Source: a virus. Taken from it: 64,000 nt of DNA. Under the pieces are notes generated by a model. It made no database searches, was not told where the DNA came from, and saw only the letters and a list, made by a program, of their open reading frames with translations. Made by a program: the position numbers and the translations under genes. The stretch lies in IMG/VR virus record IMGVR_UViG_3300007735_000801; one strand, written 5' to 3'. Below, piece after piece: positions 134-57,958 of the stretch (within the stretch, counting starts at the first letter, position 1; the number at the start of each line of letters is the position of its first letter).

Positions 134-721
134 ATGTCAAGTGAAAAATCTAAAAAATCTAAAAATATTGTAGACCCCCCGATTGTAGCCCAAAAACGGC
201 TCACCAAGGACAGCGACCACTATGTGGATAACAAGAAGTTCCTTGCTGAGATGGTTATTTGGAAACGCCAAATACGAGAAGCAGAAGAAGTAGAAGATGA
301 CAAGCCGCCAGTATCTACCTATATTGGCGAATGCTTTATGAAGATTGCGGAACGCCTTTCCTCCAAGCATAACTTTGCGAATTATCCGTATCGAGAAGAG
401 ATGGTGGGAGATGCTATTGAGAACTGTCTCATGTATGCACACAACTTTAATCCTAAGAAATCCAAGAATCCGTTCTCGTATTTCACTCAAATAATCTATT
501 ACGCCTTCCTCAGACGCATAGAAAAAGAAAAAAAGCAAAATTATATCAAGTTTAAGTTGACTGAGCACCTAGATGATGGTACAATGCATAAGTGGTGTAA
601 AACTAATTACTTTGAAAAGGATGATCCACGAGAAGCATTAAGTGAACATTTCTCTATTACAGAAAAGGATATAGAGAAGTATGAACCTAAGTTACGAAAA
701 AAGCGCAAACATAAATCATGA
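134..721 (+). CDS. gp55: T4-like late-transcription sigma factor gp55
   Basis: HYVDNKKF, YIGECFMKIAERLS, NFANYPYREEM.GDAIENCL.Y.HNFNP.KS.NPFSYFTQI.YYAFLRRI.KEKKQ motifs; upstream of gp47/gp46. Confidence 0.96.
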   Translation: MSSEKSKKSKNIVDPPIVAQKRLTKDSDHYVDNKKFLAEMVIWKRQIREAEEVEDDKPPVSTYIGECFMKIAERLSSKHNFANYPYREEMVGDAIENCLMYAHNFNPKKSKNPFSYFTQIIYYAFLRRIEKEKKQNYIKFKLTEHLDDGTMHKWCKTNYFEKDDPREALSEHFSITEKDIEKYEPKLRKKRKHKS

Positions 722-29426: not shown

Positions 29427-30830
29427 ATGAAAGATTTTGAGCATGTCCTTTTAGAAGGACTTCTCTTTCGAGAAGACTTCTACAAGAAAGTTATTCCATT
29501 CATTAGTTTGGAATACTTTCATCGAAACCCAGTGCAGATGTTGTACACCTGCATTCACGACTTTGTTATTCAGTATAACAGTTGTCCTTCAAAAGAGGCA
29601 ATCAGTATCTGTCTAGAAAAGCATAAGGGTATCAGTCAGGCAGACTATGATATCTGCATCGAAATGCTAGAGTCGTTTCAGAAAGAAGAAGCAGATAAGC
29701 ACAACATTGATTGGTTGGTGGAAGAAACCGAGAAGTTTTGTAAAGAGAAGGCTCTATACAACGGCATCATGGAATCTATTCACATCATTGACGGCAAGAG
29801 CAAGGACAAGACCAAGACGGCTATTCCTGACATCTTGAGCAAGGCTTTGTCTGTGTCTTTCGATACTCATATCGGACACGATTACCTAGAGGATACGGAA
29901 CTTCGATACGATTTCTATCACAAGGTAGAGCAACGAGTTCCGTTTGATCTAGAGTATCTGAACACAATTACAGCAGGCGGTACACCAAACAAGACGCTCA
30001 ATATTGTTATGGCTGGAACTGGAGTCGGCAAGTCTTTATTCTTGTGTCATCATGCGGCTAACTGTATCTCGCAGGGCAAGAATGTTCTCTACATTACTTG
30101 TGAAATGGCAGAAGAAAGAATTGCAGAGCGCATCGACGCAAATCTGTTGGATACCACACTTGATTCCTTGCGTGATCTTAGCAAAGAAATCTACGACAAA
30201 AGAATCAACAACATGAAGCAAACAGTCAAGGGTAAACTTATTATTAAAGAGTATCCTACTGCAAGTTCCAGTGTGAATCATTTTCGTGTGCTGTTGGACG
30301 AGTTGTGGCTCAAGAAGAAGTTCAAGCCTGATGTAATTTTTATAGATTATTTAAATATCTGTGCATCTTCTAGAATGAAGCAGGGTACGAATGTAAACTC
30401 ATACACCTACATCAAAGCCATTGCAGAAGAACTACGAGGATTGGCAACAGAACGAAATGTTCCTATCTGGTCAGCCACACAAGTTAATCGTGTTGGATTT
30501 GGTAATTCAGATTTTGGTTTGGAAGATACGAGTGAATCGTTTGGTCTTCCTGCTACTGCTGATTTCATGATTGCCCTGATTGCCACAGAACGCCTAGACG
30601 AAATCAATCAGATCATGGTTAAGCAGTTAAAGAATCGATACAACGACACCGTTGCTAATCGTAAGTTTGTTCTTGGTATCAATCGAGCCAAGATGAAATT
30701 GTACGACATTCCCAAATCAGAACAGCCTCAGTTATCAGACAGCAATCCACAAGATCCTCCTGATAATGATGAAGATCGATTTAATAACAAGTTCAAGAAG
30801 TCAAGTAAATTTACAGGATGGAAAGTATGA
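29427..30830 (+). CDS. gp41: Replicative DNA helicase gp41 (DnaB-like)
   Basis: AGTGVGKS, YITCEM.EE.IAERIDAN, IDYLNI, SATQ.NR, SESFGLPATAD, KQLKNRY. Confidence 0.96.
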   Translation: MKDFEHVLLEGLLFREDFYKKVIPFISLEYFHRNPVQMLYTCIHDFVIQYNSCPSKEAISICLEKHKGISQADYDICIEMLESFQKEEADKHNIDWLVEETEKFCKEKALYNGIMESIHIIDGKSKDKTKTAIPDILSKALSVSFDTHIGHDYLEDTELRYDFYHKVEQRVPFDLEYLNTITAGGTPNKTLNIVMAGTGVGKSLFLCHHAANCISQGKNVLYITCEMAEERIAERIDANLLDTTLDSLRDLSKEIYDKRINNMKQTVKGKLIIKEYPTASSSVNHFRVLLDELWLKKKFKPDVIFIDYLNICASSRMKQGTNVNSYTYIKAIAEELRGLATERNVPIWSATQVNRVGFGNSDFGLEDTSESFGLPATADFMIALIATERLDEINQIMVKQLKNRYNDTVANRKFVLGINRAKMKLYDIPKSEQPQLSDSNPQDPPDNDEDRFNNKFKKSSKFTGWKV

Positions 30831-34739: not shown

Positions 34740-36871
34740 AAAGAAGAATCTCTTGAAGTATCTGATCTCTGATGTTGGGATTTTCTGAGAATCAGAGTAT
34801 GAGCAATTGTTGACGGATCTAATTGATTCAACGGACCATGAGTTTTTGGATCATGAGGAACCACTCCTGCAAGAGCAGGATGGAACTTTTCACCATCTTT
34901 GTTGAGTTTTTGTGAACCGTGAATCTTACCCATGCTTGACATAATGGCTTGAAGGCTTGCTTGTGCCGCAGGATTATCTGGAAATATTTGTTGTCCAACA
35001 GGCATAATCATTTGTGTCCCTTGCTCTTTGCTGCGCCTATTTCTTTGATCAAGAGATACATCAGCTTCTTGACCGCCACCTTTGTCTTGACTTTCAGGTT
35101 CACTTATTGTTCCGCCTTCAAGTGCGGAATGTATATGTTCCATGCCTTTTCTGTCTGTGCGATATGATTCAGGATTAATCAAACCCGATTGTATTGCACG
35201 TCTAACTTTATCCATGCCCCAGTGTTCTTGTTCCATTAATTTTTGTGCCAACACTTGGCGATAGTGTTCAACAATTTGCTGCTTTTCTGGAGTAAAAGAT
35301 TCCCATTGATGTTCGGTATGATATTTACCACCTGGCATTTTATCAAATCCTTGAGCAGCATCATTATCTTCAACAAACTTCTTTTCATCTGGAGACAATT
35401 GATGATAAGAAGCAGAATTCCAGCGAACTCTCTTCAAGTCTTCTTGATTAGTTGCTGGTCGTTGAACATGGCGTTGATTCAGTTGACCAGCAGGAATACC
35501 TGGCTCAGTTATTTGAACTGGTGTTACTCCACGAGCTGGAGGAGATGCCGCAACCTTTTCTGCACCAGATCTATCTGTAATCTGTTTTGCTGTTGAAATC
35601 AATTGTTGATCAACAGTTTGCTTCTTTGGAGATGCAGACGTTTCTGTTCCAATTTCTCGTCCAACAAAAGTGTCTGGATAATAATATTTCTTTCCTGCTG
35701 CGCCAGCTGATCCAGCTCCACCTGCCGAGCCAGCTCCACCTGCTGAGCCAACTCCACCTGCCGAGCCAACTCCACCAGATGTTCTAGAATTATTAGAATT
35801 ATTATCGTCTTGTGATGGAACATAAGGAATACCTGGTGTTCCCTTTGGATAACCAAGAACTTTTGCTGCACCAGCTGCTAGTACACCAATTTCAGCAGCT
35901 GTTCTCAATAAATTGCCGTTTGGTTTTGGTGTAGTGGAACCAGGCATTTTAGTTCCTTCGATACCCTTAATAACAGGATTAGGTACAGGATCTGGCATTG
36001 GGGGCGGATACTTTGGACCACCGTCTCCTCTTTCTTTCCATTGTGTGTCTCCTGGAGTTGGGCGAGGAACTTCAAAGCGTTCACTACCACCTGTACTAGT
36101 TCCCTCTTTTCCTGTAGCTAGAGTATTATGAGAATTAATAGGTTCTTGAGTCTTTATAACAGGAACAGCCCTTCCTTGACCTGGTCCTACTGCTAGAGGA
36201 TAATTAACCTCTCCAGTCTTAGGAAATAATGGCTGAGATCTTCCTAAATTTAATAAATTATTTTTCCAATTAGGATCAAACTTATACATTGTGCCAGGAT
36301 AAGAAATAGGAGACATTCGATCACCTCCAACAGTAACCTTTACTCCTGACTTGTCCACACCACCAGCAATTTCAGCAGCGGTGCGTAAATCTCTTGGGGT
36401 ATTGTTAATTGTAGAAATAGGTTCCGCTGATGCATTAGGATCAAATGGATCTGATGCCATTCGTTGTTTTGGATCTAAAGGTATACTTTGCTTGGCGACT
36501 CTAGTTCCTTTTTTGGTTAATCTTAAACCAGCTGCATCACGCATAATTTCAGTAGTTGTCTTGGGTGGTTTAGGAGAATATATCTTTCCTGTTGCAGTTG
36601 TTAGAGTAGGAGTCGCAATTCCAGAAAATAGATCAGGTTCTACAGCCTTTGCTGCTGCTGCTGCTTCCATTTCTGCTGCTTTTGTTGCTGCTGCTGCTTC
36701 TTTTTCTATTGCCTTCTCTCCTGCCTTTAATAGATCTTTTCCTAGAAATTCCTCTCCAGCCTTTATGGCTGCTTTTATTCCTGCCTTAATTGCTCCTGCT
36801 TGTTCATTAAGATTGGTACGATTCCAAATGGCTTTAATTAGATCGGTTTCACTGTTTACTGGTTTTTGCAT
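34736..36871 (-). CDS. Large low-complexity late protein, probable capsid-internal cargo
   Basis: 711 aa; late promoter at 36894-36901; LNE/LME putative cleavage sites; A/K-, P- and G-rich segments. Confidence 0.6.
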   Translation of the reverse strand: MQKPVNSETDLIKAIWNRTNLNEQAGAIKAGIKAAIKAGEEFLGKDLLKAGEKAIEKEAAAATKAAEMEAAAAAKAVEPDLFSGIATPTLTTATGKIYSPKPPKTTTEIMRDAAGLRLTKKGTRVAKQSIPLDPKQRMASDPFDPNASAEPISTINNTPRDLRTAAEIAGGVDKSGVKVTVGGDRMSPISYPGTMYKFDPNWKNNLLNLGRSQPLFPKTGEVNYPLAVGPGQGRAVPVIKTQEPINSHNTLATGKEGTSTGGSERFEVPRPTPGDTQWKERGDGGPKYPPPMPDPVPNPVIKGIEGTKMPGSTTPKPNGNLLRTAAEIGVLAAGAAKVLGYPKGTPGIPYVPSQDDNNSNNSRTSGGVGSAGGVGSAGGAGSAGGAGSAGAAGKKYYYPDTFVGREIGTETSASPKKQTVDQQLISTAKQITDRSGAEKVAASPPARGVTPVQITEPGIPAGQLNQRHVQRPATNQEDLKRVRWNSASYHQLSPDEKKFVEDNDAAQGFDKMPGGKYHTEHQWESFTPEKQQIVEHYRQVLAQKLMEQEHWGMDKVRRAIQSGLINPESYRTDRKGMEHIHSALEGGTISEPESQDKGGGQEADVSLDQRNRRSKEQGTQMIMPVGQQIFPDNPAAQASLQAIMSSMGKIHGSQKLNKDGEKFHPALAGVVPHDPKTHGPLNQLDPSTIAHTLILRKSQHQRSDTSRDSSF
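35698..35778. repeat. 18-bp tandem repeat encoding GG(V/A)GSA x4-5
   Basis: ccagctccacctgc(c/t)gag units. Confidence 0.8.
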
Positions 36872-36893
36872 AAAGGGTTCCTTTTTTCTACTT

Positions 36894-36927
36894 TATTTAG
36901 GCTTTTTATACTTTGTCCGTATACATA
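36894..36927. promoter_or_regulatory. Divergent late promoters: CCTAAATA (- strand, 36894-36901) and TATACATA (+ strand, 36920-36927)
   Basis: Late-promoter-like motifs in the gap between divergent genes. Confidence 0.55.
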
Positions 36928-36934
36928 CTATTGT

Positions 36935-37699
36935 ATGAAATACCTCAGGCTTGCTGCAATAAGTTTCGCAGTAGTCTTCGTGGTGCTCCTCTTGAGGCAC
37001 AAAGAAGCAAAGCCTGTACTACCTAAAATCAATCTTCCTAGTCCAGCAACCATAGTTGATGATATCCTAGAGATAGACAGTTATCCAGGTTTCACTGTGG
37101 TAACTGATGACTGTGCAGATACCTATAAATGTGTGGGAGAAATCTTGGTTACTGGTGGTCGCTTCATTGGCAGTGGAACATTGATTGCTCCTAAAGTAGT
37201 GGTTACTGCGGCACACGTAATTAAAGATTCTGAACTAGAGTATTTTCGAACAAACAACCAGTGCTACAAGATTAGAAAATCTGTGGCACACCCAGATTAT
37301 ACAGAGGAAGGAAGTGGTAAAAATGATATCGGTTTACTTTTCTTGGAGGAAGCGTGTCTAGAAACTCCTGCAGAGTTACAGACAGATCCCCAAGACCTAA
37401 AGCGAGGAGAACTGTTAACAACAGTTGGATTCTCTCATAAAATTAAAAAAATTAGTAATGAACACACTTTCTGGTATTATGGAACAATTGTGGAGCAACC
37501 AACCTATATTCGTTTTCTTGCCTACAAAGGAAACATCTGGCTTGGTGATTCTGGTGGTGCCGTATTCGAAGACGGCGGCAAGCTGACAGGAGTAATATCT
37601 GCACTTATGATTATGGAGTACTCTGTGGTGGATCAGATTGCTGCACGAGTAGACCTGTACGTTCCTTGGATCAGACAGATGGAGAAGATCAATGAGTAG
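36935..37699 (+). CDS. Trypsin-like (S1) serine protease with N-terminal membrane anchor/signal
   Basis: Triad motifs TAAHV, NDIGLL, GDSGG; GSGTLI; hydrophobic LAAISFAVVFVVLLL; start taken at MKYL (36935). Confidence 0.88.
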   Translation: MKYLRLAAISFAVVFVVLLLRHKEAKPVLPKINLPSPATIVDDILEIDSYPGFTVVTDDCADTYKCVGEILVTGGRFIGSGTLIAPKVVVTAAHVIKDSELEYFRTNNQCYKIRKSVAHPDYTEEGSGKNDIGLLFLEEACLETPAELQTDPQDLKRGELLTTVGFSHKIKKISNEHTFWYYGTIVEQPTYIRFLAYKGNIWLGDSGGAVFEDGGKLTGVISALMIMEYSVVDQIAARVDLYVPWIRQMEKINE

Positions 37700-37772: not shown

Positions 37773-38252
37773 TTAGTGTGTATGTCTTTCGTAATCTTCT
37801 CTGGCAATGTTTAGTGGCTTATCGTATCTGAATGGTTTAGTAGGAATTATTAATGTTGGATCGAATATAGGATTTCTACGTGCCTCTGAGGCAACTCTAG
37901 GATCTGGGTGTTCTCCTGCTACACGAACAGTCCATAAATCATTTATTCCTCTAGGATGACGAAGACCTGCCAAAGCAACTTCAGCATCTGGATTTTTTAC
38001 TGCATTACGAGTTGTCTGCCAATATGCAAAACGATGGTTTAGTGCTGCCATAACAGCTGCTGGATCTGAATGTTTTGATGCAAATGCAGTTGTTTCGTAA
38101 TTTGATTCTGGATCACTTAATGCGGCTATTACAACTGCAGGATCTGAATGTTGTGCTTGAATATTTAGTTGTTCTGTGGTGGTAGAGCGACTTGGGCGAT
38201 GTTCTTTTGGAGACTCTTCTGCTTCGTTTAAATATTCTAGAAAGTTTTTCAT
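37773..38252 (-). CDS. Putative internal head protein with capsid-targeting sequence and HEAT/LRV-like repeats
   Basis: N-term MKNFLEYLNE; four ~26-aa (H/N)(S/P)D..V..A helical repeats; TATAAATA 6 nt upstream. Confidence 0.7.
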   Translation of the reverse strand: MKNFLEYLNEAEESPKEHRPSRSTTTEQLNIQAQHSDPAVVIAALSDPESNYETTAFASKHSDPAAVMAALNHRFAYWQTTRNAVKNPDAEVALAGLRHPRGINDLWTVRVAGEHPDPRVASEARRNPIFDPTLIIPTKPFRYDKPLNIAREDYERHTH

Positions 38253-38258
38253 ATACCC

Positions 38259-38266
38259 TATTTATA
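38259..38266 (-). promoter_or_regulatory. Late promoter TATAAATA, 6 nt before ATG
   Basis: Exact consensus on - strand. Confidence 0.75.
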
Positions 38267-38876
38267 CTTCACTAGTAGGAAGCATTCCCCTTGAAGATCT
38301 TTGATTATTTATTTTTCTTAATCTTTGGTCTTCATCTGATTTAATTTTATTTGTTTCTGCTTGTTGTGCAATATTTTTATTTGATTGTTGTTGCTGTTTA
38401 GTGTAATCATCTGGAGCAATTACATTTTTAATGGAATTATAAATAACTCCTGGAGTTTCTTTTACTGCATTTATTATATTATTTCGATACTCACTCACTT
38501 TTTCAGTAGAATTAAGAGGAGTATATACCGAAGGAAAATTAACTCCCTTAGCAGTTCTGTCAGAAGCAGCTTTAAATCCTGCTTGGTTTCCTACTAATCC
38601 GCCAGATTCTTCTCTATTATGATCAAATCTTAAACCTAAATCTGAATTTAATCTTTTTTCTGTACTCATTCTAGAATCATCTTCTCCTGGTTTTGCCATA
38701 AATCCTAGTTTACTATTAGCTAATGTCCAATAATTTGTTGTATGATCTCCACCATATAGATCTGCCATAAATCCAACATTACGGTTACCTTCTCCCCATT
38801 CAGCATCATCGGGAGTAACAAAAAATGGACTTTTTGGTTTAGATTCTTCTCTTAAAAATTCGATAAAGCTTTTCAT
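38262..38876 (-). CDS. Putative internal head protein with capsid-targeting sequence
   Basis: N-term MKSFIEFLRE; TATAAATA 6 nt upstream. Confidence 0.7.
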   Translation of the reverse strand: MKSFIEFLREESKPKSPFFVTPDDAEWGEGNRNVGFMADLYGGDHTTNYWTLANSKLGFMAKPGEDDSRMSTEKRLNSDLGLRFDHNREESGGLVGNQAGFKAASDRTAKGVNFPSVYTPLNSTEKVSEYRNNIINAVKETPGVIYNSIKNVIAPDDYTKQQQQSNKNIAQQAETNKIKSDEDQRLRKINNQRSSRGMLPTSEV

Positions 38877-38882
38877 ATACTA

Positions 38883-38900
38883 TATTTATACTCCTAAATA
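38883..38900. promoter_or_regulatory. Back-to-back late promoters: TATAAATA (- strand, 38883-38890) and CCTAAATA (+ strand, 38893-38900)
   Basis: Both lie in a 29-bp gap, 6 and 5 nt from their start codons. Confidence 0.7.
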
Positions 38901-38905
38901 CCTAT

Positions 38906-39463
38906 GTGATTATCGCAGGTATAGATTATTCCATGACAAGTCCAAGCATCTGTGTGTTCAACTCCACAGAGCCTTTCAAGTTTCAGAGATGTTCCTTCTA
39001 CTTTCTGAGCGATGTAAAGAAAAATCAAAAATTATTCCTGACCAATATTCGTGGAGATCCGTTTGATGACTGGAACTCTGATTTTGCTCGATTTGAAAGC
39101 ATATCAGACTGGGCACTACAGATGTGCATAGGATGCGACCAGATAGCCCTAGAAGGGTATGCATACGGTGCAAAGGGTAAAGTGTTTCATATTGCAGAGA
39201 ACACTGGCGTTCTCAAATATCGTCTGCATCAACTAAGTATTCCAGTAGAAGTGATTCCTCCGAGTGCCGTAAAGAAGCAGGCTGCTGGCAAGGGCAACGC
39301 AAACAAAGAAGAGATGTATCAGGCATTTCTAATGGAGACTGGAATAGATCTGAAGGGAACTATTAGTCCAGACAAGAAAGATGTCGGAAACCCCGTTTCC
39401 GACATCGTGGATTCTTATTATATCTGTAAGAGTCTCTACACCAAACTTAAGAGTTTGGGTTGA
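38906..39463 (+). CDS. RuvC-like Holliday junction resolvase / RNase H-fold nuclease
   Basis: AGIDYS.TSP, ALEGYAYG, IAEN.G.LK, P..VKK.A.GKGNA.KE.M, DIVDSY. Confidence 0.82.
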   Translation: MIIAGIDYSMTSPSICVFNSTEPFKFQRCSFYFLSDVKKNQKLFLTNIRGDPFDDWNSDFARFESISDWALQMCIGCDQIALEGYAYGAKGKVFHIAENTGVLKYRLHQLSIPVEVIPPSAVKKQAAGKGNANKEEMYQAFLMETGIDLKGTISPDKKDVGNPVSDIVDSYYICKSLYTKLKSLG

Positions 39464-39483
39464 TCTTAAAGACTTTCAGAGTA

Positions 39484-40872
39484 TTAATTATCCAAGCCGT
39501 AACGCTTAATATGAGTGTCTAAATCAGTATCGTCTGGATGGTTAGCAGACGGATCGCCGTCACGCAAATCCACAGGAATCAATTCTTTTTCTGCTTTAGA
39601 AACTAAACCATCACCATTTAGATCTTGAGCACCTGCTGGTCTACCTTTACCAAGTTTTACTCTGAAAGGATTTGCTGCACGAGCCTTGGCAAATTCTTCT
39701 GGAGAAGCACCTGCTGGTGTACCTCCACCTGGTGTATTTTCGTGCATCGGCATACGATTGCCGTTCACCCAGAGTCCTGGATTTTGTGCGTCTTGGCTTT
39801 TGGTTTGCATACTCTGGAGATGTGTCAAGAACATAGATCTGTTTGTGTTTTCTTGCATTGGAGCAGACTTTGATTTAGGTTTATCTGCCTTTGATTTATT
39901 TCTGTTGTTCCATGCTTTCATCATATCATCAACCATTTTACCTCGTTCTTCAACACTAGCATTGGGAAAACCTTTTTTTATTTGATTTGTAAAAGTAATA
40001 AGAGGTAAACCTATAGGATGATTTTCGTTTTCTTCTTGAAGACCAGCAACAACAGCTTTTGCTGCGTTTTGATCTTGTTCGTAAGCCGAGTCTGGTGAAT
40101 AGACTGGTAGACCCTGAGCCCTTCGTCGTTTTATTGCTGCTGCTCTTTGGTCTAGTTCGTCGTATGTTGAATCTTTAGCGTATTCAAGTGGATTTCTTGT
40201 GTTGGTAACAACCTTGTCTTGGTCTTGTAACTGTGCTCGTACTCTATCAGCCTTTACTGATGCATCAATTTCAGCAGAAAGTGCAGCACTTCTAGCTGCT
40301 TCTTCTGGTGTAACTTCTCTGTTGCCGTCTGCGTCAACTGGAGGAACAACAAGCTGAAGGTAATTATTTCGACCAGATTTTGGTTTAAAAAATGAACTAG
40401 TAGATGGATCTAATTTTCTGGCAAGTTCTTCTTGCATCGGTTCAGGTTGCATTGCTCCAGGAGCTCTACCACCACTAAGATTACCTCTTGCAATTTGCTT
40501 AGCCATAAGTTCTATTTCTGCATCTGCTACATTAGTTAATGGATTATAAATATCAGGATTACCATTTGGATTCATTCTAGCATCTTCTCTGTATAAGTTT
40601 TCAACATTTACTCTAGCTGGATTTCTATTACCAGAATTAGCATTCCAAACTTGCCGTGTTGTTGGGCTCATTGATCTGGCTGCTGCTCCTGTAGTGGATG
40701 CAGGTAAACCATCCAATCCATTACCCATTGGATCTATTACTTTTTCCTTATCCATATTACCTTTTCCTTCTTGGATAGGCATGCGATTGCCATTCACCCA
40801 GAGTCCTGGGTTCTGTGAGTTCTGGCTATTGGTTTGCATACTCTTTAAAAAAGATAGAAACATTGGGTTCAT
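39484..40872 (-). CDS. Late protein with duplicated 32-aa leader module, probable capsid cargo polyprotein
   Basis: MFL..L.SMQT.SQ..QNPGLWVNGNRMP..E occurs twice; EF-hand-like DLNGDGLVSKAE; late promoter at 40894-40899. Confidence 0.6.
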   Translation of the reverse strand: MNPMFLSFLKSMQTNSQNSQNPGLWVNGNRMPIQEGKGNMDKEKVIDPMGNGLDGLPASTTGAAARSMSPTTRQVWNANSGNRNPARVNVENLYREDARMNPNGNPDIYNPLTNVADAEIELMAKQIARGNLSGGRAPGAMQPEPMQEELARKLDPSTSSFFKPKSGRNNYLQLVVPPVDADGNREVTPEEAARSAALSAEIDASVKADRVRAQLQDQDKVVTNTRNPLEYAKDSTYDELDQRAAAIKRRRAQGLPVYSPDSAYEQDQNAAKAVVAGLQEENENHPIGLPLITFTNQIKKGFPNASVEERGKMVDDMMKAWNNRNKSKADKPKSKSAPMQENTNRSMFLTHLQSMQTKSQDAQNPGLWVNGNRMPMHENTPGGGTPAGASPEEFAKARAANPFRVKLGKGRPAGAQDLNGDGLVSKAEKELIPVDLRDGDPSANHPDDTDLDTHIKRYGLDN

Positions 40873-40904
40873 TTTATTCCTTTGGTTATACTGTATTTAG
40901 TGTT

Positions 40905-41198
40905 TTAACAATTCCACTTGCGAAGAGCCAGTGCTTTACGAGTAGGCTCTCCATTTGGTTTTTTCATGGCTCCAGGCATTCCGCCCATTCTGGCACAAAA
41001 AGATTTTCTTCTTTTTGCTGCTTTAGAGCCCTTTTTTAGTTTAGAAGGAGGTGTTGTTACTGCCGTCTGTAATTTACTTCCAGGATGTTCCCTTCGGTAA
41101 GAACGAATACCTTCAGGATTCAAACCACCCTCAGGATTCTTTCCTTCTTTGCGTGTCCATGCCGCAGTTTCGTTTAGGTATTCTTGAAACGATTTCAT
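40905..41198 (-). CDS. Putative internal head protein, small basic (DUF6321-like)
   Basis: MKSFQEYLNE followed by AAWTRKEGKNP.GGLN…RRKSFCARM.G…ALRKWNC. Confidence 0.72.
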   Translation of the reverse strand: MKSFQEYLNETAAWTRKEGKNPEGGLNPEGIRSYRREHPGSKLQTAVTTPPSKLKKGSKAAKRRKSFCARMGGMPGAMKKPNGEPTRKALALRKWNC

Positions 41199-41893
41199 GC
41201 TGGTGTTACTTTCTTTCCAAATGCTCCGTGCATTCCTACTCTAGACTTTTCTGCCTTCTTCTTTTTTAGCTCTTCGGAAGACATCTCTCCTGTTGTCTTT
41301 GGTGTACTTTTATTTATTCTTTTGGTTGGTCTGCAGTATTCGTTTTTTCCACCTGCACCACAAGCTTTACCGCTCTTCGTGTCTTTCCACTTCTCTGCTC
41401 CCCATCGTTTAAGGTTTGCTCCACTTTTAGTTTTGCGAACATCACCCTTTGATTTACGACATTTAGCAGTTGCTTGTGCTGCTCTGGCACTCCACTTGCC
41501 GTAACTTGCCATTACCTTTCGATAACAAGCATCCCGTTCTTCGGTTAGTTTTGGTGGAATTTTTTGACCATTAAAAAATGTACTAATAATACCAGTTGGG
41601 TGTGGTTCATCTGAAACAAAATGTCTTCCTGTTATTGGGTGTTTAATAACATATTGAACTTTATTCTCACTAGATAATGTTGCATCTTTTTCTGCTGTAG
41701 CTAAATCATCTGTGGAATTTGTTACAGGTTTATCTGTTGAAGTCTTTGTATACCCAGGCAAAGAAGTTAAATTATATCTTCTTGCTGTTGCATTACCAGA
41801 ATCAGAAAGTTGCCATGCTCTGCTACCTCTTTGTAGTGCAAAACTTCTAGCAAATGATTTTTCTTCGGTTAGATATTCTTTAAAAGATTTCAT
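41195..41893 (-). CDS. Putative internal head protein with basic C-terminal domain
   Basis: MKSFKEYLTE; second LTE site precedes DACY.KV…WSA.A…KCRK / LKRW..EKW.D domain. Confidence 0.7.
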   Translation of the reverse strand: MKSFKEYLTEEKSFARSFALQRGSRAWQLSDSGNATARRYNLTSLPGYTKTSTDKPVTNSTDDLATAEKDATLSSENKVQYVIKHPITGRHFVSDEPHPTGIISTFFNGQKIPPKLTEERDACYRKVMASYGKWSARAAQATAKCRKSKGDVRKTKSGANLKRWGAEKWKDTKSGKACGAGGKNEYCRPTKRINKSTPKTTGEMSSEELKKKKAEKSRVGMHGAFGKKVTPA

Positions 41894-42132
41894 GAATCTG
41901 CATTAATCTTTTTTCGTTTAACCAACACAGTCCATCCCCAGGCTACTGCCAAGAAGAGAACAGGAAGATACCACAAAATCCATCCCCAACCATTTCGTTG
42001 AGAAATGGTGTCTGCGTGTTGTGCCGCATTGGTGGAAATATCAGGAATGATTACAGGAGTTGTGTTGCAGGCAGTAAAAAAACAAAAAATTGTCAACGCC
42101 AATACCAAACGAGCCTTTGTGATAAGTTTCAT
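41890..42132 (-). CDS. Lipoprotein with C-terminal TM helix (spanin-like topology)
   Basis: Signal + lipobox FTAC; second hydrophobic segment WILWYLPVLFLAVAWGWTVLV then KRKK. Confidence 0.5.
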   Translation of the reverse strand: MKLITKARLVLALTIFCFFTACNTTPVIIPDISTNAAQHADTISQRNGWGWILWYLPVLFLAVAWGWTVLVKRKKINADS

Positions 42133-42141
42133 ATAATCTCC

Positions 42142-42579
42142 TTAAGATTTATTGCTGGCTGCAGCTGATCCAAAATAAAATCCTACAATTGAAAGTAAGA
42201 TCTGTCGATTTTCACTAGTGAACAAATACCCATTTATTTCCACAAAGAATTTTCGTGTAGAAGAAGGAATCAAACCAAACAGTCCCTCTGGTGTGGTTGC
42301 ATCAACTTCCACAAATGTTGGTGTGCCAAAGAACGGCAATATGAATGGAGCAAGTAGTGTGGCAAACAGAACTCCCAAGACAATAACTTGGCGCACAACA
42401 CGTCCAGCATCCACTGAGACACGCTGCACGGCTTTATCTTGATTCTCAGTTGTCTGCTTGTTCGCAGCCATGAGTTGATTAAACATCTCTTTTTGGTCTT
42501 GACTCTTCTGAGCCATGTAACGAAAAAGGAATCCAGTGAATCCGCCACCAATGAGTGAAATTAGTTCAGTTGGTATCAT
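42142..42579 (-). CDS. Membrane protein, holin-like
   Basis: Three hydrophobic segments, C-terminal I.GFYFG motif; late promoter at 42595-42600 and AGGAG RBS. Confidence 0.55.
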   Translation of the reverse strand: MIPTELISLIGGGFTGFLFRYMAQKSQDQKEMFNQLMAANKQTTENQDKAVQRVSVDAGRVVRQVIVLGVLFATLLAPFILPFFGTPTFVEVDATTPEGLFGLIPSSTRKFFVEINGYLFTSENRQILLSIVGFYFGSAAASNKS

Positions 42580-43126
42580 TTGATTCTCCTGTAGTATTTA
42601 GGCTATTCTTCTTTCTACGTCCCATATATCGTCCTGCACTTTGTTGTATTCGTTTTTGAACGGAAACAGGGATTCCAAGGTCATCAGGTTTCATTCCAGC
42701 TACGCCACCTGCGGCTACGCTATTAGCAATAGGTGCAGCTGCTCCTTCTCCGTCTTCCTGTAAAAGACCGCAAGCTCGTAATTCACGCATTGCTCCTTCC
42801 AAGAACATGGCACCATTGCCGCCAGCTTTTTCACACTCTTCTGTGAACAGAGCAAGAGCTGCAGGAACATTAGTAAGATGAGCACGAACATAAGGATCAG
42901 GAACTTTGACTAGTAGACGTTTTAAAGAGACAATTAGTTGTTCGAATGGAGTGAACTGTTGCAGTTCTCTCTGAGACAATTCCTCAACAGATTTTAATTG
43001 TTTTCCGTTAGCGTCAATGATACCCATACTGTAAGCTGGCATTCTGGTGAATGGAGTTGTCAGGGCATCAATGAATTTATACAGAGTAAAATTAGTAATA
43101 ATTTCAGTTAATTTACTAGGCTTCAT
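42566..43126 (-). CDS. Conserved T4-like hypothetical protein (late region)
   Basis: YKFI..LTTPF….AY..GIIDANG…LKRL motif; C-terminal LQE-DG…AP.NSV. Confidence 0.7.
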   Translation of the reverse strand: MKPSKLTEIITNFTLYKFIDALTTPFTRMPAYSMGIIDANGKQLKSVEELSQRELQQFTPFEQLIVSLKRLLVKVPDPYVRAHLTNVPAALALFTEECEKAGGNGAMFLEGAMRELRACGLLQEDGEGAAAPIANSVAAGGVAGMKPDDLGIPVSVQKRIQQSAGRYMGRRKKNSLNTTGESNDTN

Positions 43127-43503
43127 ACAATTTCCTTTAAAACTTTCATTATTCGATGATCTAACGGAATATCATCTATTTTAACTTCTGGTACCCTTTT
43201 AGGTAGGATTTGTAGAAAGTACAGAAATGTTTTTAGGTATGAATGATATCTGGGTTCAGTTTTAAAGAACAGAATTCGTGAACAAGCTTCAACCCCAAAC
43301 ACATTATTAAGTATCAGTATATGATTGAGCAGCAAACGATCTTTGAGTGTTTTCTTTAAATCATACTTATTAAATAACCGTTTAATGTATTTAATTCTAT
43401 TTAAATCATCATAGAATTCTGAAATCCCTATACAGTTGGGATTGTCATACATTTTAATGGCATAAAGAAGAAAAGTGTCTTCACTCAAAGGTTCATAAAG
43501 CAT
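43123..43503 (-). CDS. Conserved T4-like hypothetical protein
   Basis: L.E..F.LYAIK.YDNP.C…EF..DL.R.KYIKRL…LLLNH…NVFG motif. Confidence 0.75.
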   Translation of the reverse strand: MLYEPLSEDTFLLYAIKMYDNPNCIGISEFYDDLNRIKYIKRLFNKYDLKKTLKDRLLLNHILILNNVFGVEACSRILFFKTEPRYHSYLKTFLYFLQILPKRVPEVKIDDIPLDHRIMKVLKEIV

Positions 43504-43506
43504 ATT

Positions 43507-44079
43507 TTAATTTTGTCTTTGTTTAATAAATCCGTGTGTATCCAATGGAGGAGTAATTGCGCCCATAGTTTTTTGACCTTGTTCTGGGTTATCGCCACTA
43601 TAGCGTACAACATCAGCAGACATCTTGTATAGACCAGATGGTGCCTCTTGAATTCCCAAAGCAATGGCTAGATGATCTCCGTCAAGAGTATCCTCAACGC
43701 CATCAGTTGTCTTGAATCCATCCTTCATCAGGTTGTGTTCTGGTGTGGTACCAAACGTGCCACCAAAGCGACTAAGCTTCAGGTATTGTGTTTGACCAAC
43801 ATTCAATTCAGTCTTGCCATTAAACTCAAAATCTAAACCAGCCAAGTTGATCTTGACTCGCATCAAAGACAAAGCTGCACGAGGTTCCAGATATTCACGT
43901 CCTGTGAATGCGTTCAAGAATGCTTGAATTCTCTGAACTTGTTGGTTGTCTTCGATACGGTGAATGCCGAAGTCGCTTTGAGCAGACTGCACACTTTGTG
44001 CTGGGTATCCCCCAAGAGCTCCGCCTTCGGTATTTTCACCTTCGTTTAATTGTAATCGTAAATCTTTGTATTTTTTCAT
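43507..44079 (-). CDS. Late hypothetical protein with CTS-like N-terminus
   Basis: MKKYKDLRLQLNE; TATAAATA at 44094-44101 and AGGAG RBS. Confidence 0.65.
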   Translation of the reverse strand: MKKYKDLRLQLNEGENTEGGALGGYPAQSVQSAQSDFGIHRIEDNQQVQRIQAFLNAFTGREYLEPRAALSLMRVKINLAGLDFEFNGKTELNVGQTQYLKLSRFGGTFGTTPEHNLMKDGFKTTDGVEDTLDGDHLAIALGIQEAPSGLYKMSADVVRYSGDNPEQGQKTMGAITPPLDTHGFIKQRQN

Positions 44080-44128
44080 TTTTGTCTCCTTTGTATTTAT
44101 ACGGAATTAATCTAATCTTTATGTGCTA

Positions 44129-55642: not shown

Positions 55643-57958
55643 TTATATATGAGCCGACATACTTGAAACAAGGCGATTTACCAAAACCCTTGAAACGATC
55701 TTTTTCTGCAAGGATCGAATGAAATTGCTCTTTAACTTGGCGTAAGTGGCATTTCCCATATTAATATCTTCGTAGGTATCAACCGTTTCCTTGCGAGTGC
55801 ATCGAATAACGAACACTTGATTGAAACTTTCCTGTCCCTTGTTATGGGATTGAAGCATACCTTCAGAATTATAATACTGATTCCTACCATCAGAACAGAC
55901 AGCCAGTAGATAATTCTCATTATTCCATTGAGCAGTAAATTCTGTAGTGTCATCATTGTACGAAGCATTATTCAACTCAATAATTTTATTATTATTTCCC
56001 ATCATGGCAACATTGTGGCAAGGAATACGAATGCCCTTGACTGATGTTGAAGCATCCAAGAACAGGAGAATTGCATTGCATCCAGTATTATCACGAAGGT
56101 ATTCCACACAGACATTTGTGGTCAATCTTTCGTGCATCGAGTACGAAGCCTTTGTGCGTTTATTAATAATGCGAGTCGGTCTGCGTACACCAATATCACT
56201 CTCCTCATCATAATAACTCCTTGAGAGTGGACTGCCTGAAGTCGAGCCGTCTGAAATTACCACGCAGTTTAATATCTCGATTTTGTTCTTCTTACGGAAA
56301 TTAATCAAGATTTGGTTTGCCGCAATAATGGCATCATCTAACGGAGTATCTCCAAGACGCAAGCACCACGGCGTGTTGGGGCAATTACCACCAAACTTGT
56401 AGCCGTAGCCGCCAAGCACCGAACCCAACAAGAACAGGTGTCGCATGGCATTCATGTGTTCCGTCTTACGCATCTTGCTAGATGCGAAGTTATAGAGATG
56501 AAATTCTTGGGCTGTGACCACTCCAGTCTGACCGTAATTAGTTTGGACATCCTGAATAGAAAATCTTGTCTTAGACAATTCTTCTGCCGCTTCAGTATAA
56601 TCACTATACGATTTGTTATCATCCTTGTCGAAATTACCAGTCAAGACTGGGGTGTTCGTACTGAACGCATACACTTCGTATGGCACACCGATGCGACGAA
56701 AGAAAGATGTGAGAATATACATTTGCTTCACAACATCTTGGACGAGAGGTTGCATCGAGCCGCTCCAGTCAAGGAACACCACAAAGCCGTGATTCTTGCC
56801 ATTAGGCTTCACGGTGAAGTGCTTGAAGATATCTTCGCTCCACTTGTATTGTGTAAGCAAGTTCATGTCCAATACACCAGTCTTGGCAGTCTGATTACGA
56901 TGATGCTGTTGAGCCGCCTTCTTTGTCAGGAACACCTTGACCATTGCATCGACTGTTGCGTTGGCTTCTTTGGTGAAAGTATTATACGATCCCATAATTT
57001 CCTCTGTTGCCTCTTTCATGCCCTTCGACTTAGAGTTGGATACAGAGTTTTCCATAGCATTCATGATGTCCACATAAGGAACAATAATTCTTTCAAGATC
57101 ATATTCGGGAAGATAGGCAGGGCTGTCTTTGTCGGAATAATAACTGTCTTTAACTTTGCTGTCCAACCACTTCTTTTGTGCATTAGCCGTAAATGATTCA
57201 GGTGCAATGTTGTGTCGGTTTTCAGATTGCTTACCCTGTACTGATTCAGGATCACCATCAGCATCAGTTTCGTATTCGCCATCTTGCCCATCGCCACCCT
57301 TTGTTGGCTTGCCCTGTGGTCGATCACTCGTTTCAGGTTCTTGGTTTGCTTCCTTCTTGGCTTCTTCCCACAAGCGACGAGTCACCGCACACACTTCCTC
57401 GAAAGTCTGTGCTGACTCAACATCATCAATGATGGCTTGCTCGTCGGCACTAAACGGAATATGTGTTCCTAGATGCTTGCCGATCTTAAAGTGCAAGTTG
57501 GTACGATCAATGATTCGCATCTTGGTGTAGTCTGCCTTGCTCAAATCACCAAACATTTGGTTGTCGGCAAGCCACTTGTAGCCCTTGTAGTAATCACTAC
57601 GCAATCCTGCATACTTCTCCTTGATGAGTCGTTCAATGCGAGCATCTTCCACGATGTTAAGATACATGGCGGCACGGCTTTTGTCATCATTGCTTGCTGT
57701 TGCACCAACAATAGAGTCAATGAACTGCTCCATGCCTTCAGGTGGTGTATGGAGTGCGTGGCTGACTTCGTGTGACAGGAACAAGTCATACGCCTCTTGA
57801 GTCATGTCTGACCAGTCAGGCACAGTCAGGACACGACTCTTGACATCCATTGATGCTGTCTTTGCCTTTGTGTCAAAGATCACCGAAAGGTTTTCTGTTG
57901 ACATTAGTTTTGCGAAAGTGCTATGACTGCCGTGTGATTGTTGTGAGATTGATTTCAT
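55643..57958 (-). CDS. CobT-like protein: N-terminal metallopeptidase-like domain, acidic linker, VWA domain
   Basis: TA..D…R.L..P.W, HEVSHALHT, NIVEDARIE, MIDAS DWSGSM, YAF, TPL, ISDG. Confidence 0.85.
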   Translation of the reverse strand: MKSISQQSHGSHSTFAKLMSTENLSVIFDTKAKTASMDVKSRVLTVPDWSDMTQEAYDLFLSHEVSHALHTPPEGMEQFIDSIVGATASNDDKSRAAMYLNIVEDARIERLIKEKYAGLRSDYYKGYKWLADNQMFGDLSKADYTKMRIIDRTNLHFKIGKHLGTHIPFSADEQAIIDDVESAQTFEEVCAVTRRLWEEAKKEANQEPETSDRPQGKPTKGGDGQDGEYETDADGDPESVQGKQSENRHNIAPESFTANAQKKWLDSKVKDSYYSDKDSPAYLPEYDLERIIVPYVDIMNAMENSVSNSKSKGMKEATEEIMGSYNTFTKEANATVDAMVKVFLTKKAAQQHHRNQTAKTGVLDMNLLTQYKWSEDIFKHFTVKPNGKNHGFVVFLDWSGSMQPLVQDVVKQMYILTSFFRRIGVPYEVYAFSTNTPVLTGNFDKDDNKSYSDYTEAAEELSKTRFSIQDVQTNYGQTGVVTAQEFHLYNFASSKMRKTEHMNAMRHLFLLGSVLGGYGYKFGGNCPNTPWCLRLGDTPLDDAIIAANQILINFRKKNKIEILNCVVISDGSTSGSPLSRSYYDEESDIGVRRPTRIINKRTKASYSMHERLTTNVCVEYLRDNTGCNAILLFLDASTSVKGIRIPCHNVAMMGNNNKIIELNNASYNDDTTEFTAQWNNENYLLAVCSDGRNQYYNSEGMLQSHNKGQESFNQVFVIRCTRKETVDTYEDINMGNATYAKLKSNFIRSLQKKIVSRVLVNRLVSSMSAHI

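Follow-up and report, generated by a model that had tools for sequence, protein, structure and literature searches.

A probable T4-type internal-protein locus with tagged, modular cargo in an uncultivated phage

Why should five genes of one virus, otherwise without resemblance to one another, begin by encoding nearly the same short peptide? The genes in question lie on the minus strand of a 64,000-nucleotide stretch of viral DNA, IMG/VR record IMGVR_UViG_3300007735_000801 (the whole of this stretch is referred to here as the window), and we call the shared peptide the leader or tag, and the remainder of each protein its payload. Our answer, to which we attach a probability of about 0.8 on the basis of sequence comparisons, is that they form a hyperplastic internal-protein locus of the T4 type, in which a capsid-targeting propeptide is carried by modular cargo, and that the phage is an uncultivated member of the T4 superfamily. 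The internal-protein locus is a concept already known from the T-even phages; what is new here is the lineage, the payload families, the stacking of modules with duplicated cleavage sites, and a link to the enzymes found in cyanophage virions.

An earlier note on this DNA placed the tagged starts at 38252, 38876, 41198, 41893 and 44079, and all five were confirmed (Table 1). Four of the leaders fit MK[S/N]FxE[Y/F]LxE; the fifth is a 13-residue variant. The strict form of the motif, MK[STN]F.E[YF][LI].E, occurs four times when the window is translated in all six frames, against 2.5e-5 matches expected from residue frequencies and none in 300 codon-block shuffles, and all four matches stand at the start of an open reading frame (ORF), 1–14 codons past an in-frame stop. 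On these statistics chance was rejected as the source of the shared leader. Paralogy was rejected as well: the claim that the proteins are unrelated beyond the leader held in an all-against-all BLASTP comparison (1e-4), in which the payloads had no mutual similarity.

Table 1. Positions of the principal features (window coordinates unless a contig is named; aa, amino acids; pI, isoelectric point).
Feature	Position	Strand	Remarks
gp55-type late sigma factor	134-721	+	phrog_234, E 9.4e-56
Tagged cargo gene 1, 159 aa	37773-38252	-	helical-repeat payload, ~4-5 units, pI 6.5
Leader 1	38223-38252	-	MKNFLEYLNE; heads 159-aa gene
T4-type late promoter box TATAAATA	38259-38266	-	6 nt 5' of ATG 38252; overlaps stop codon of upstream gene
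Tagged cargo gene 2, 204 aa	38262-38876	-	payload outside known families, pI 7.0
Leader 2	38847-38876	-	MKSFIEFLRE; heads 204-aa gene
T4-type late promoter box TATAAATA	38883-38890	-	6 nt 5' of ATG 38876
Tagged cargo gene 3, 97 aa	40905-41198	-	DUF6321, pI 11.1, 2 Cys
Leader 3	41169-41198	-	MKSFQEYLNE; heads 97-aa gene
Tagged cargo gene 4, 232 aa	41195-41893	-	leader + 108-aa module + KLTE↓ERD site + DUF5872 (↓, predicted cut)
DUF5872 of 232-aa protein	41198-41539	-	pI 10.3, 4 Cys
108-aa module of 232-aa protein	41540-41863	-	no known family; between leader and second site
Leader 4	41864-41893	-	MKSFKEYLTE; heads 232-aa gene
Conserved framework genes	41890-43503	-	phrog_407 (126 aa), phrog_2086 (186 aa), transmembrane protein (145 aa), 80-aa protein
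Conserved tagged gene, 190 aa	43507-44079	-	acidic payload, pI 5.2; first gene of late operon
Leader 5	44041-44079	-	MKKYKDLRLQLNE, 13 residues; heads 190-aa gene
T4-type late promoter box TATAAATA	44094-44101	-	followed by AAGGAG ribosome-binding site; 5' of 44079
Tagged Acb1 homologue	L144:2104-2571 (IMGVR_UViG_3300050162_000268)	+	MKTFREYLAE leader before domain

The identity of the leader is suggested by comparison with T4. The T4 leader quoted in the earlier note, MKTYQEFIAE, is indeed that of IPII and IPIII, and IPI bears a 19-residue version, MKTFKEFTSTTTPVSTITE, which begins MKTFKEF (NC_000866). In T4 this capsid targeting sequence is borne by all three internal proteins (Mullaney and Black 1996, reviewed in PMC9026906 and PMC3012670); mutagenesis assigns targeting mainly to residues 4 and 7 and processing to residues 8 and 10, and the prohead protease gp21 cuts after Glu in L/I-x-E (PMC9026906). 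Aromatic at positions 4 and 7, with Leu at 8 and Glu at 10, the four 10-residue leaders of the window match T4 at the functionally important positions; they have Glu at 6 as well. All five end in the gp21 motif L/I-x-E, giving predicted cleavage sites YLNE↓A, FLRE↓E, YLNE↓T, YLTE↓E and QLNE↓G. That the 13-residue variant is a longer form of the same device follows from its orthologues: in more distant contigs the 190-aa protein has, in the same place, the 10-residue leader MKTFKHYIKE or MKTFKQHIKE. An exhaustive HMMER search brought the family to 131 representatives, 115 of them full-length; 72 of the 115 start with M[KR]x[FYW], and in 68 of those 72 an [LIVMF]xE ends at residues 10–18.

A shared N-terminus might instead serve some other process – one involving the neighbouring, membrane-anchored trypsin-like protease encoded at 36866–37699, or degradation, regulation or export – and the gene for this protease does lie within the locus in all close relatives. 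Yet the tag, being hydrophilic and acidic, does not qualify as a signal peptide; its end is L-x-E, which is not a trypsin site; it agrees with the T4 capsid targeting sequence position by position; and, counted on the tag alone, it recurs in cyanophages (Syn9 gp184, S-SCSM1 ORF91) as well as in many contigs. We regard an explanation of this kind as very improbable. The protease itself (plus strand; Pfam Trypsin, E 8.6e-14) has an N-terminal hydrophobic segment and is conserved in relatives.

The setting of the tagged genes points to expression late in infection. As the earlier note had it, TATAAATA stands directly upstream of three of the five, 6, 6 and 14 nt before the ATGs at 38252, 38876 and 44079. 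The minus strand of the whole window holds four such boxes, and the association with tagged genes (3/5, against 3/75 other genes) is significant (hypergeometric p ~0.002). Reading the box as a late promoter is supported by the gp55-type sigma factor that the window encodes. The starts at 41893 and 41198 are ATGA overlaps and lie within a tightly packed operon that runs from the promoter at 44101. Judged from these sequence features, late, gp55-dependent expression of all five tagged genes is supported. The short distance between box and ATG would give nearly leaderless late mRNAs.

These same boxes bear on the idea that what is conserved is a nucleic-acid element – a translation-initiation cassette or a patch of recombination homology – and not a peptide signal. 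In its favour are the constant TATAAATA-N6-ATG spacing at 38252 and 38876, the 5–7 nt found in tagged genes of relatives (G001 1178; G002 131980), and the cassette-like exchange between strains that is described below. However, two of the five tagged genes have no box, the amino-acid pattern persists across phages whose DNA no longer aligns, and the leaders draw on different codon families for the same residue (AGC, TCG and TCT for Ser3; TTA and CTA for Leu8). Since the Ser and Leu codons differ, it is the peptide and not the DNA that is conserved; a DNA-level cassette was judged unlikely on this ground, and taking all of the evidence together we find a nucleic-acid element scarcely credible.

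A capsid-targeting propeptide would presuppose a T4-like head. The locus has no close DNA relative in the phage collection by near-identity search, and the closest gp43 in that collection, from a cyanomyovirus, shares 47% identity with the family-B polymerase (gp43) of the window; other T4-like genes of the window encode UvsX, the gp41 helicase, the gp61 primase, the gp46 and gp47 nuclease subunits and gp55. A collinear relative, G001, is a 153,850-bp IMG/VR contig with ~90% DNA identity, position 1 of the window corresponding to G001 66,304. Just upstream of that point lies a G001 head module with homologues of gp20, gp21, gp22 and gp23, identical to their T4 counterparts at 40% (portal gp20), 43% (gp21), 26% (gp22-like scaffold) and 38% (gp23-like capsid) of positions; the gp21 gene ends ~8 kb, and the gp22 gene ~5 kb, upstream of the point at which the window starts. 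G001 gp21 matches Pfam Peptidase_S77 (E 1e-35) and keeps the motifs GELNHP and GVSxRG, equivalent to those around the catalytic His85 and Ser140 of T4 gp21 (PMC12991175), and an I-S-E↓A site is found in the gp23-like protein near the position at which T4 gp23 is cleaved. G002 and G003 likewise have matches of the gp21 type (Peptidase_S77).

Between the portal and gp21 genes of G001 (57182–57601; L054:17182-17601) is a gene for a small protein with the motif DPVGEEDGDIDNDGDEDKTDGYLKNRR, which is seen again in the N-terminal region of Syn9 gp185 (L211:1523-1980) and in several PHROGs, one of them annotated 'cytidyltransferase'. This motif, which the window does not have, may be a second module common to head-internal proteins. 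The Ca-binding-like motif of the same G001 protein (DGDIDNDGD) was not found in the proteins of the window.

Taken together, these features suggest a pathway. Each of the five genes would encode a short amphipathic N-terminal propeptide, 10 or 13 residues long, corresponding to the capsid targeting sequence of T4. During prohead assembly, late in infection, the protein would be docked by its tag onto the gp22-type scaffolding core; a gp21-type serine protease would then cut after the Glu of L-x-E at tag positions 8–10, and also at the duplicated L/V-x-E sites that separate stacked modules. The mature payloads would remain in the head with the DNA, to be expelled into the next host. Packaging, cleavage, injection and anti-defence or DNA-protection roles of the five proteins we infer by analogy with T4.

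Internal-protein loci of T-even phages vary (PMC9026906, PMC3012670), and so does this one. We compared the window, G001 and other IMG/VR contigs with a phrog_407 homologue 77–97% identical. The locus has a framework that begins with a 378-aa protein, the 190-aa tagged protein, phrog_407, phrog_2086 and a transmembrane protein; continues with a small protein that has a lipobox and a C-terminal transmembrane segment, a first variable slot (A), a protein of variable length starting MNxMFLSFLKSMQT and a RuvC-like gene on the opposite strand; and ends with a second slot (B), the trypsin-like protease gene (opposite strand), a long low-complexity protein and ribonucleotide reductase. Gene order over 41890–43503 is the same in G001, L004, L005, L006 and L008. 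Each of the two slots holds between none and two tagged genes among strains that are 90–97% related. The window has the 232-aa and 97-aa tagged genes in slot A and the 204-aa and 159-aa genes in slot B; G001 has a single 124-aa tagged gene in A and an untagged, opposite-strand gene in B; L004 has two 124-aa tagged genes in A and a different, 323-aa tagged gene in B; and L005 has two tagged genes in A and an empty B.

Several other features of the framework were observed. The untagged gene in slot B of G001 (117476–118168) encodes 230 aa whose N-terminus (…KPVYVGFT) resembles, by eye, a GIY-YIG homing endonuclease. The 80-aa protein (41890–42132, minus strand) is laid out like a unimolecular spanin, with a lipobox (…FFTAC) and, at the C-terminus, a transmembrane segment, and on its upstream side adjoins the 145-aa protein (42142–42579, minus strand), which has an N-terminal transmembrane helix; both are kept in all relatives and are located between tagged genes. 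In the 462-aa protein (39484–40872, minus strand) a 32-aa N-terminal module (MNxMFLSFLKSMQT..QNPGLWVNGNRMP) recurs near the C-terminus, and orthologues of 79, 196 and 404 aa in 90–97% related strains mark its body as highly expandable.

What, then, is the cargo? The 159-aa protein was described in the earlier note as a HEAT-repeat protein. A helical-repeat solenoid is confidently predicted (AlphaFold2; predicted local distance difference test, pLDDT, 81), with helical hairpins over residues 25–135; membership of the HEAT family was not established, there being no Pfam (E up to 0.01) or PHROG match and no significant fold match in the PDB (best TM-score ~0.5, E > 0.04; the best matches, themselves not significant, were designed helical repeats and ankyrin-type DARPins). 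'HEAT' is thus a description of the modelled style of this payload and not a family assignment. The 12 close homologues that were found share at least 69% identity with it and retain MKNFLEYLNEAEE in every case; one of them is short of exactly one 26-aa repeat. The 204-aa protein has two homologues among 5.8 billion proteins and a poorly ordered ESM Atlas model (pLDDT 0.42); a module of ~60 aa within it (EK..SD.G..F...G.L.GN.AGFKA) is common to two other tagged proteins of G002. Back-translated DNA patterns found no IMG/VR relatives of either the 159-aa or the 204-aa protein, and for the 204-aa protein and the 108-aa module no known relatives were found beyond close phage homologues. We see the helical-repeat protein and the 204-aa protein as candidates for binding to host factors.

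The two 'basic Cys-containing domains' of the earlier note proved to be Pfam families. The 97-aa protein is DUF6321 (PF19846; E 4.4e-22, 78.9 bits against a cut-off of 28.5, residues 19–95), a domain with more than 7,900 homologous clusters; an identical protein is encoded on a 143-kb contig, and for its model (pLDDT 70) neither a fold search nor a sequence-profile search of the PDB gave a match. The 232-aa protein contains DUF5872 (PF19197; 46.1 bits against a cut-off of 27.5, residues 137–218). By analogy with IPII and IPIII, the DUF6321 and DUF5872 payloads are most likely associated with the packaged DNA. The searches revealed no enzyme domain in any of the window's five payloads.

The view of the system as modular, an address tag joined to a payload, is borne out by the variation of the slots between strains and by the many unrelated payloads that carry the tag in related phages; in addition, modules are stacked within single proteins. 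Alignment with the forms in L004 and L005 shows that the 232-aa protein is equivalent to the 124-aa protein of L005 (tag plus DUF5872), its tag interrupted by an inserted module of 108 residues such that the LTE site is duplicated: MKSFKEY-LTE↓...module...KLTE↓ERDACYRKV. Likewise, the 124-aa DUF6321 proteins of G001 and L004 have a 27-residue Cys module between YLKE↓ and VPVNE↓TAAW. A duplicated LTE or VNE site was found at every module junction examined. Among DUF6321 homologues in the collection of 5.8 billion proteins the domain regularly begins with [TSA]AAW right after a Glu, preceded by the tag alone or by the tag and one or two extra modules.

Even if the tag loads the prohead, the proteins might serve only inside the particle, as accessories of the core or scaffold or as DNA-condensing counter-ions, and be inactive against the host; they may even be degraded to peptides like gp22, gp67 and gp68. 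The DUF6321 and DUF5872 payloads are extremely basic (Table 1), like IPII and IPIII, whose lysines contact DNA (PMC3012670), and the near-universal presence of DUF6321 in cyanomyoviruses (502 phage records) would suit a housekeeping role; the 190-aa protein, too, is conserved and syntenic. But the neutral 159-aa and 204-aa payloads are strain-specific and turn over between phages that are 90–97% related, which fits arms-race cargo better than structural parts, and elsewhere the same tag heads enzymes (NMNAT, adenylate kinase, an Acb1 homologue). The distribution of protease sites also bears on the matter. Apart from module junctions, the mature parts of the five window proteins contain a single further [LI]xE, and across four genomes this motif is 2.3-fold rarer in tagged payloads than in other proteins (0.56 against 1.28 per 100 residues). 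Avoidance of the site backs the cargo reading, supportively and not decisively; it argues that the payloads are not built for degradation. A role confined to the particle therefore appears unlikely to us, although it is an explanation to be taken seriously.

The reading of the leader as a capsid-targeting tag gains weight from its spread. A scan with the leader motif, suggested in the earlier note, over the window and related phages found it to recur mostly at ORF starts and on unrelated payloads. IMG/VR was scanned with a degenerate DNA pattern for M-K-S/T-F-x-E-Y-L/F-x-E and with a permuted control, M-E-S/T-Y-x-K-F-L/F-x-E: the tag pattern was found in at least 120 contigs, the control in 13. 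Among the matches listed, 110 of 122 begin an ORF (40 aa or more) with the preceding stop no more than 25 codons away (control, 1 of 9), and these 110 ORFs comprise at least 28 payload families, including a large one matching a PHROG 'virion structural protein', cytidylyltransferases, a DnaJ-domain protein, a HAD phosphatase and a homologue of Acb1, the nuclease that counters the cyclic-oligonucleotide-based anti-phage signalling system (CBASS). Another related contig encodes a tagged adenylate kinase. The Acb1 homologue (Pfam E 2.8e-23; 30% identical to T4 57B) suggests, from its sequence, that some phage pre-packages a counter-defence enzyme. This homologue and the strain-level turnover of the two neutral payloads are pointers towards an anti-defence role, and the only ones.

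Leaders are more alike within a genome than between genomes (identity over positions 3–9, 0.56 against 0.39; permutation p 2e-4), and genomes have what may be called dialects: MKSFLQ[HY][LI]xE on eight proteins of G002, MKKFK..L.[ED] in G004, and MKSFxEYLxE in the window and G001. Ligands of a single receptor specific to the genome would show such similarity; so, equally, would tags copied from gene to gene.

The tag is also found on proteins of cultured cyanophages. In the T4-like cyanophage S-SCSM1 the NMNAT-like ORF91 was detected by mass spectrometry in CsCl-purified virions, and the authors were unable to account for the presence of this metabolic enzyme (PMC9602691); a similar puzzle has been described for S-CREM2 (PMC10665884). 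ORF91 (L214:28820-30049) starts MKSFLQFLKE↓AAESG, and Syn9 gp184, a cytidyltransferase, starts MKKFSAFLSE. The genes around ORF91 encode virion proteins, and a few genes separate it from the phrog_407 homologue, ORF96, itself a neighbour of virion proteins that mass spectrometry detected. In S-SCSM1 the protein ORF29 (L215:42662-44215), with a C-terminal DUF6321, was likewise detected in virions by this method (PMC9602691). ORF29 also has a LHKWFKGSKSKDG...C module, which in the marine virus AG-345-E15 comes directly after an MKTFEQFTE leader. In the literature library searched, no paper was found linking cyanophage virion enzymes to the capsid targeting sequence.

A number of points weigh against an internal-protein locus. 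The 64-kb window is without head genes, including those for gp21 and gp22, whose presence we infer from the collinear G001. A loosened motif also catches the start of the gp41-type helicase (MKDFEHVLLE; 29427–30830, plus strand), which is tag-like and fails at positions 6–7; only the strict form is thus diagnostic, looser forms yielding false positives on early genes. When payloads are compared with their own shuffles the depletion of [LI]xE is modest (22 against 29 expected, p 0.07). ORF30 of S-SCSM1 is tagged and has no virion-protein annotation in its record. Finally, for this phage and its close relatives the support is drawn from sequence comparison, and injection and payload function would follow by analogy with T4.

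How far the argument extends is a separate question. That the capsid targeting sequence is kept nearly letter for letter across the aquatic T4 superfamily, and that cargo is gained by insertion of modules inside the tag, is a joint reading that we offer tentatively, at a little under even odds. Were the tag so conserved, the packaged – and probably injected – proteome could be read from sequence, that of uncultivated aquatic phages included; the route by which NMNAT-like enzymes and kinases enter cyanophage virions would be explained; and counter-defence would be predicted to be pre-loaded, as with the tagged anti-CBASS Acb1 homologue of one IMG/VR contig. Each inserted module would keep its own protease site, the design of a plug-in polyprotein. 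Packaged proteins would act before phage genes are expressed, and it is among them that first-strike counter-defence and host-takeover factors would naturally be sought. DUF6321 and DUF5872, two very large families to which no function has been assigned, would be marked as probable head-internal, DNA-associated proteins, and the turnover of tagged genes at fixed slots would provide a compact case of modular arms-race evolution.

The nearest known system is that of the T4 internal proteins themselves. Common to both are a propeptide of the form M-K-T/S-Y/F-x-E-F/Y-I/L-x-E ending in a gp21 site, payloads that are small and mutually unrelated (some of them very basic), variation of the locus among close relatives and, probably, dependence on a head of the gp21/gp22 type. 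The differences are that the window phage is a distant aquatic relative of T4 known only as sequence; that its payloads (DUF6321, DUF5872, a helical repeat and two without a family) have no T4 counterpart; that some of its proteins stack two modules with duplicated cleavage sites; and that its conserved first gene has a 13-residue form of the tag. T4 Alt is a packaged ADP-ribosyltransferase that gp21 processes at both ends. Alt resembles the present case as cargo of enzyme size that enters by way of a propeptide and is freed by gp21; relatives of the window carry the tag on NMNAT/cytidylyltransferase, adenylate kinase and Acb1 homologues; it differs in that the payloads of the window have no detected enzyme domain, and an ADP-ribosyltransferase-like match in G002 was below threshold (E 0.002).

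The inner-body and ejection proteins of phiKZ, 201phi2-1 and SPN3US share maturation after Glu by a protease of the gp21 family, with redundant propeptide sites (PMC9026906, PMC5694885), yet they are characterised by the motif S/A-x-E, which is distinct from L/I-x-E, and the sections consulted describe no shared 10-residue N-terminal tag (PMC9026906). A further comparison is with the virion-associated NMNAT/cytidylyltransferases and kinases of the T4-like cyanophages S-SCSM1, S-CREM2 and S-CBWM1. The proteins are different from the payloads of the window, the papers leave the route of entry unexplained, and in the text consulted the tag goes unmentioned; nonetheless these too are non-structural proteins in purified virions (PMC9602691, PMC10665884), S-SCSM1 has a neighbourhood with a phrog_407 homologue as in the window, and its ORF91, like Syn9 gp184, begins with the same kind of tag as the window leaders.

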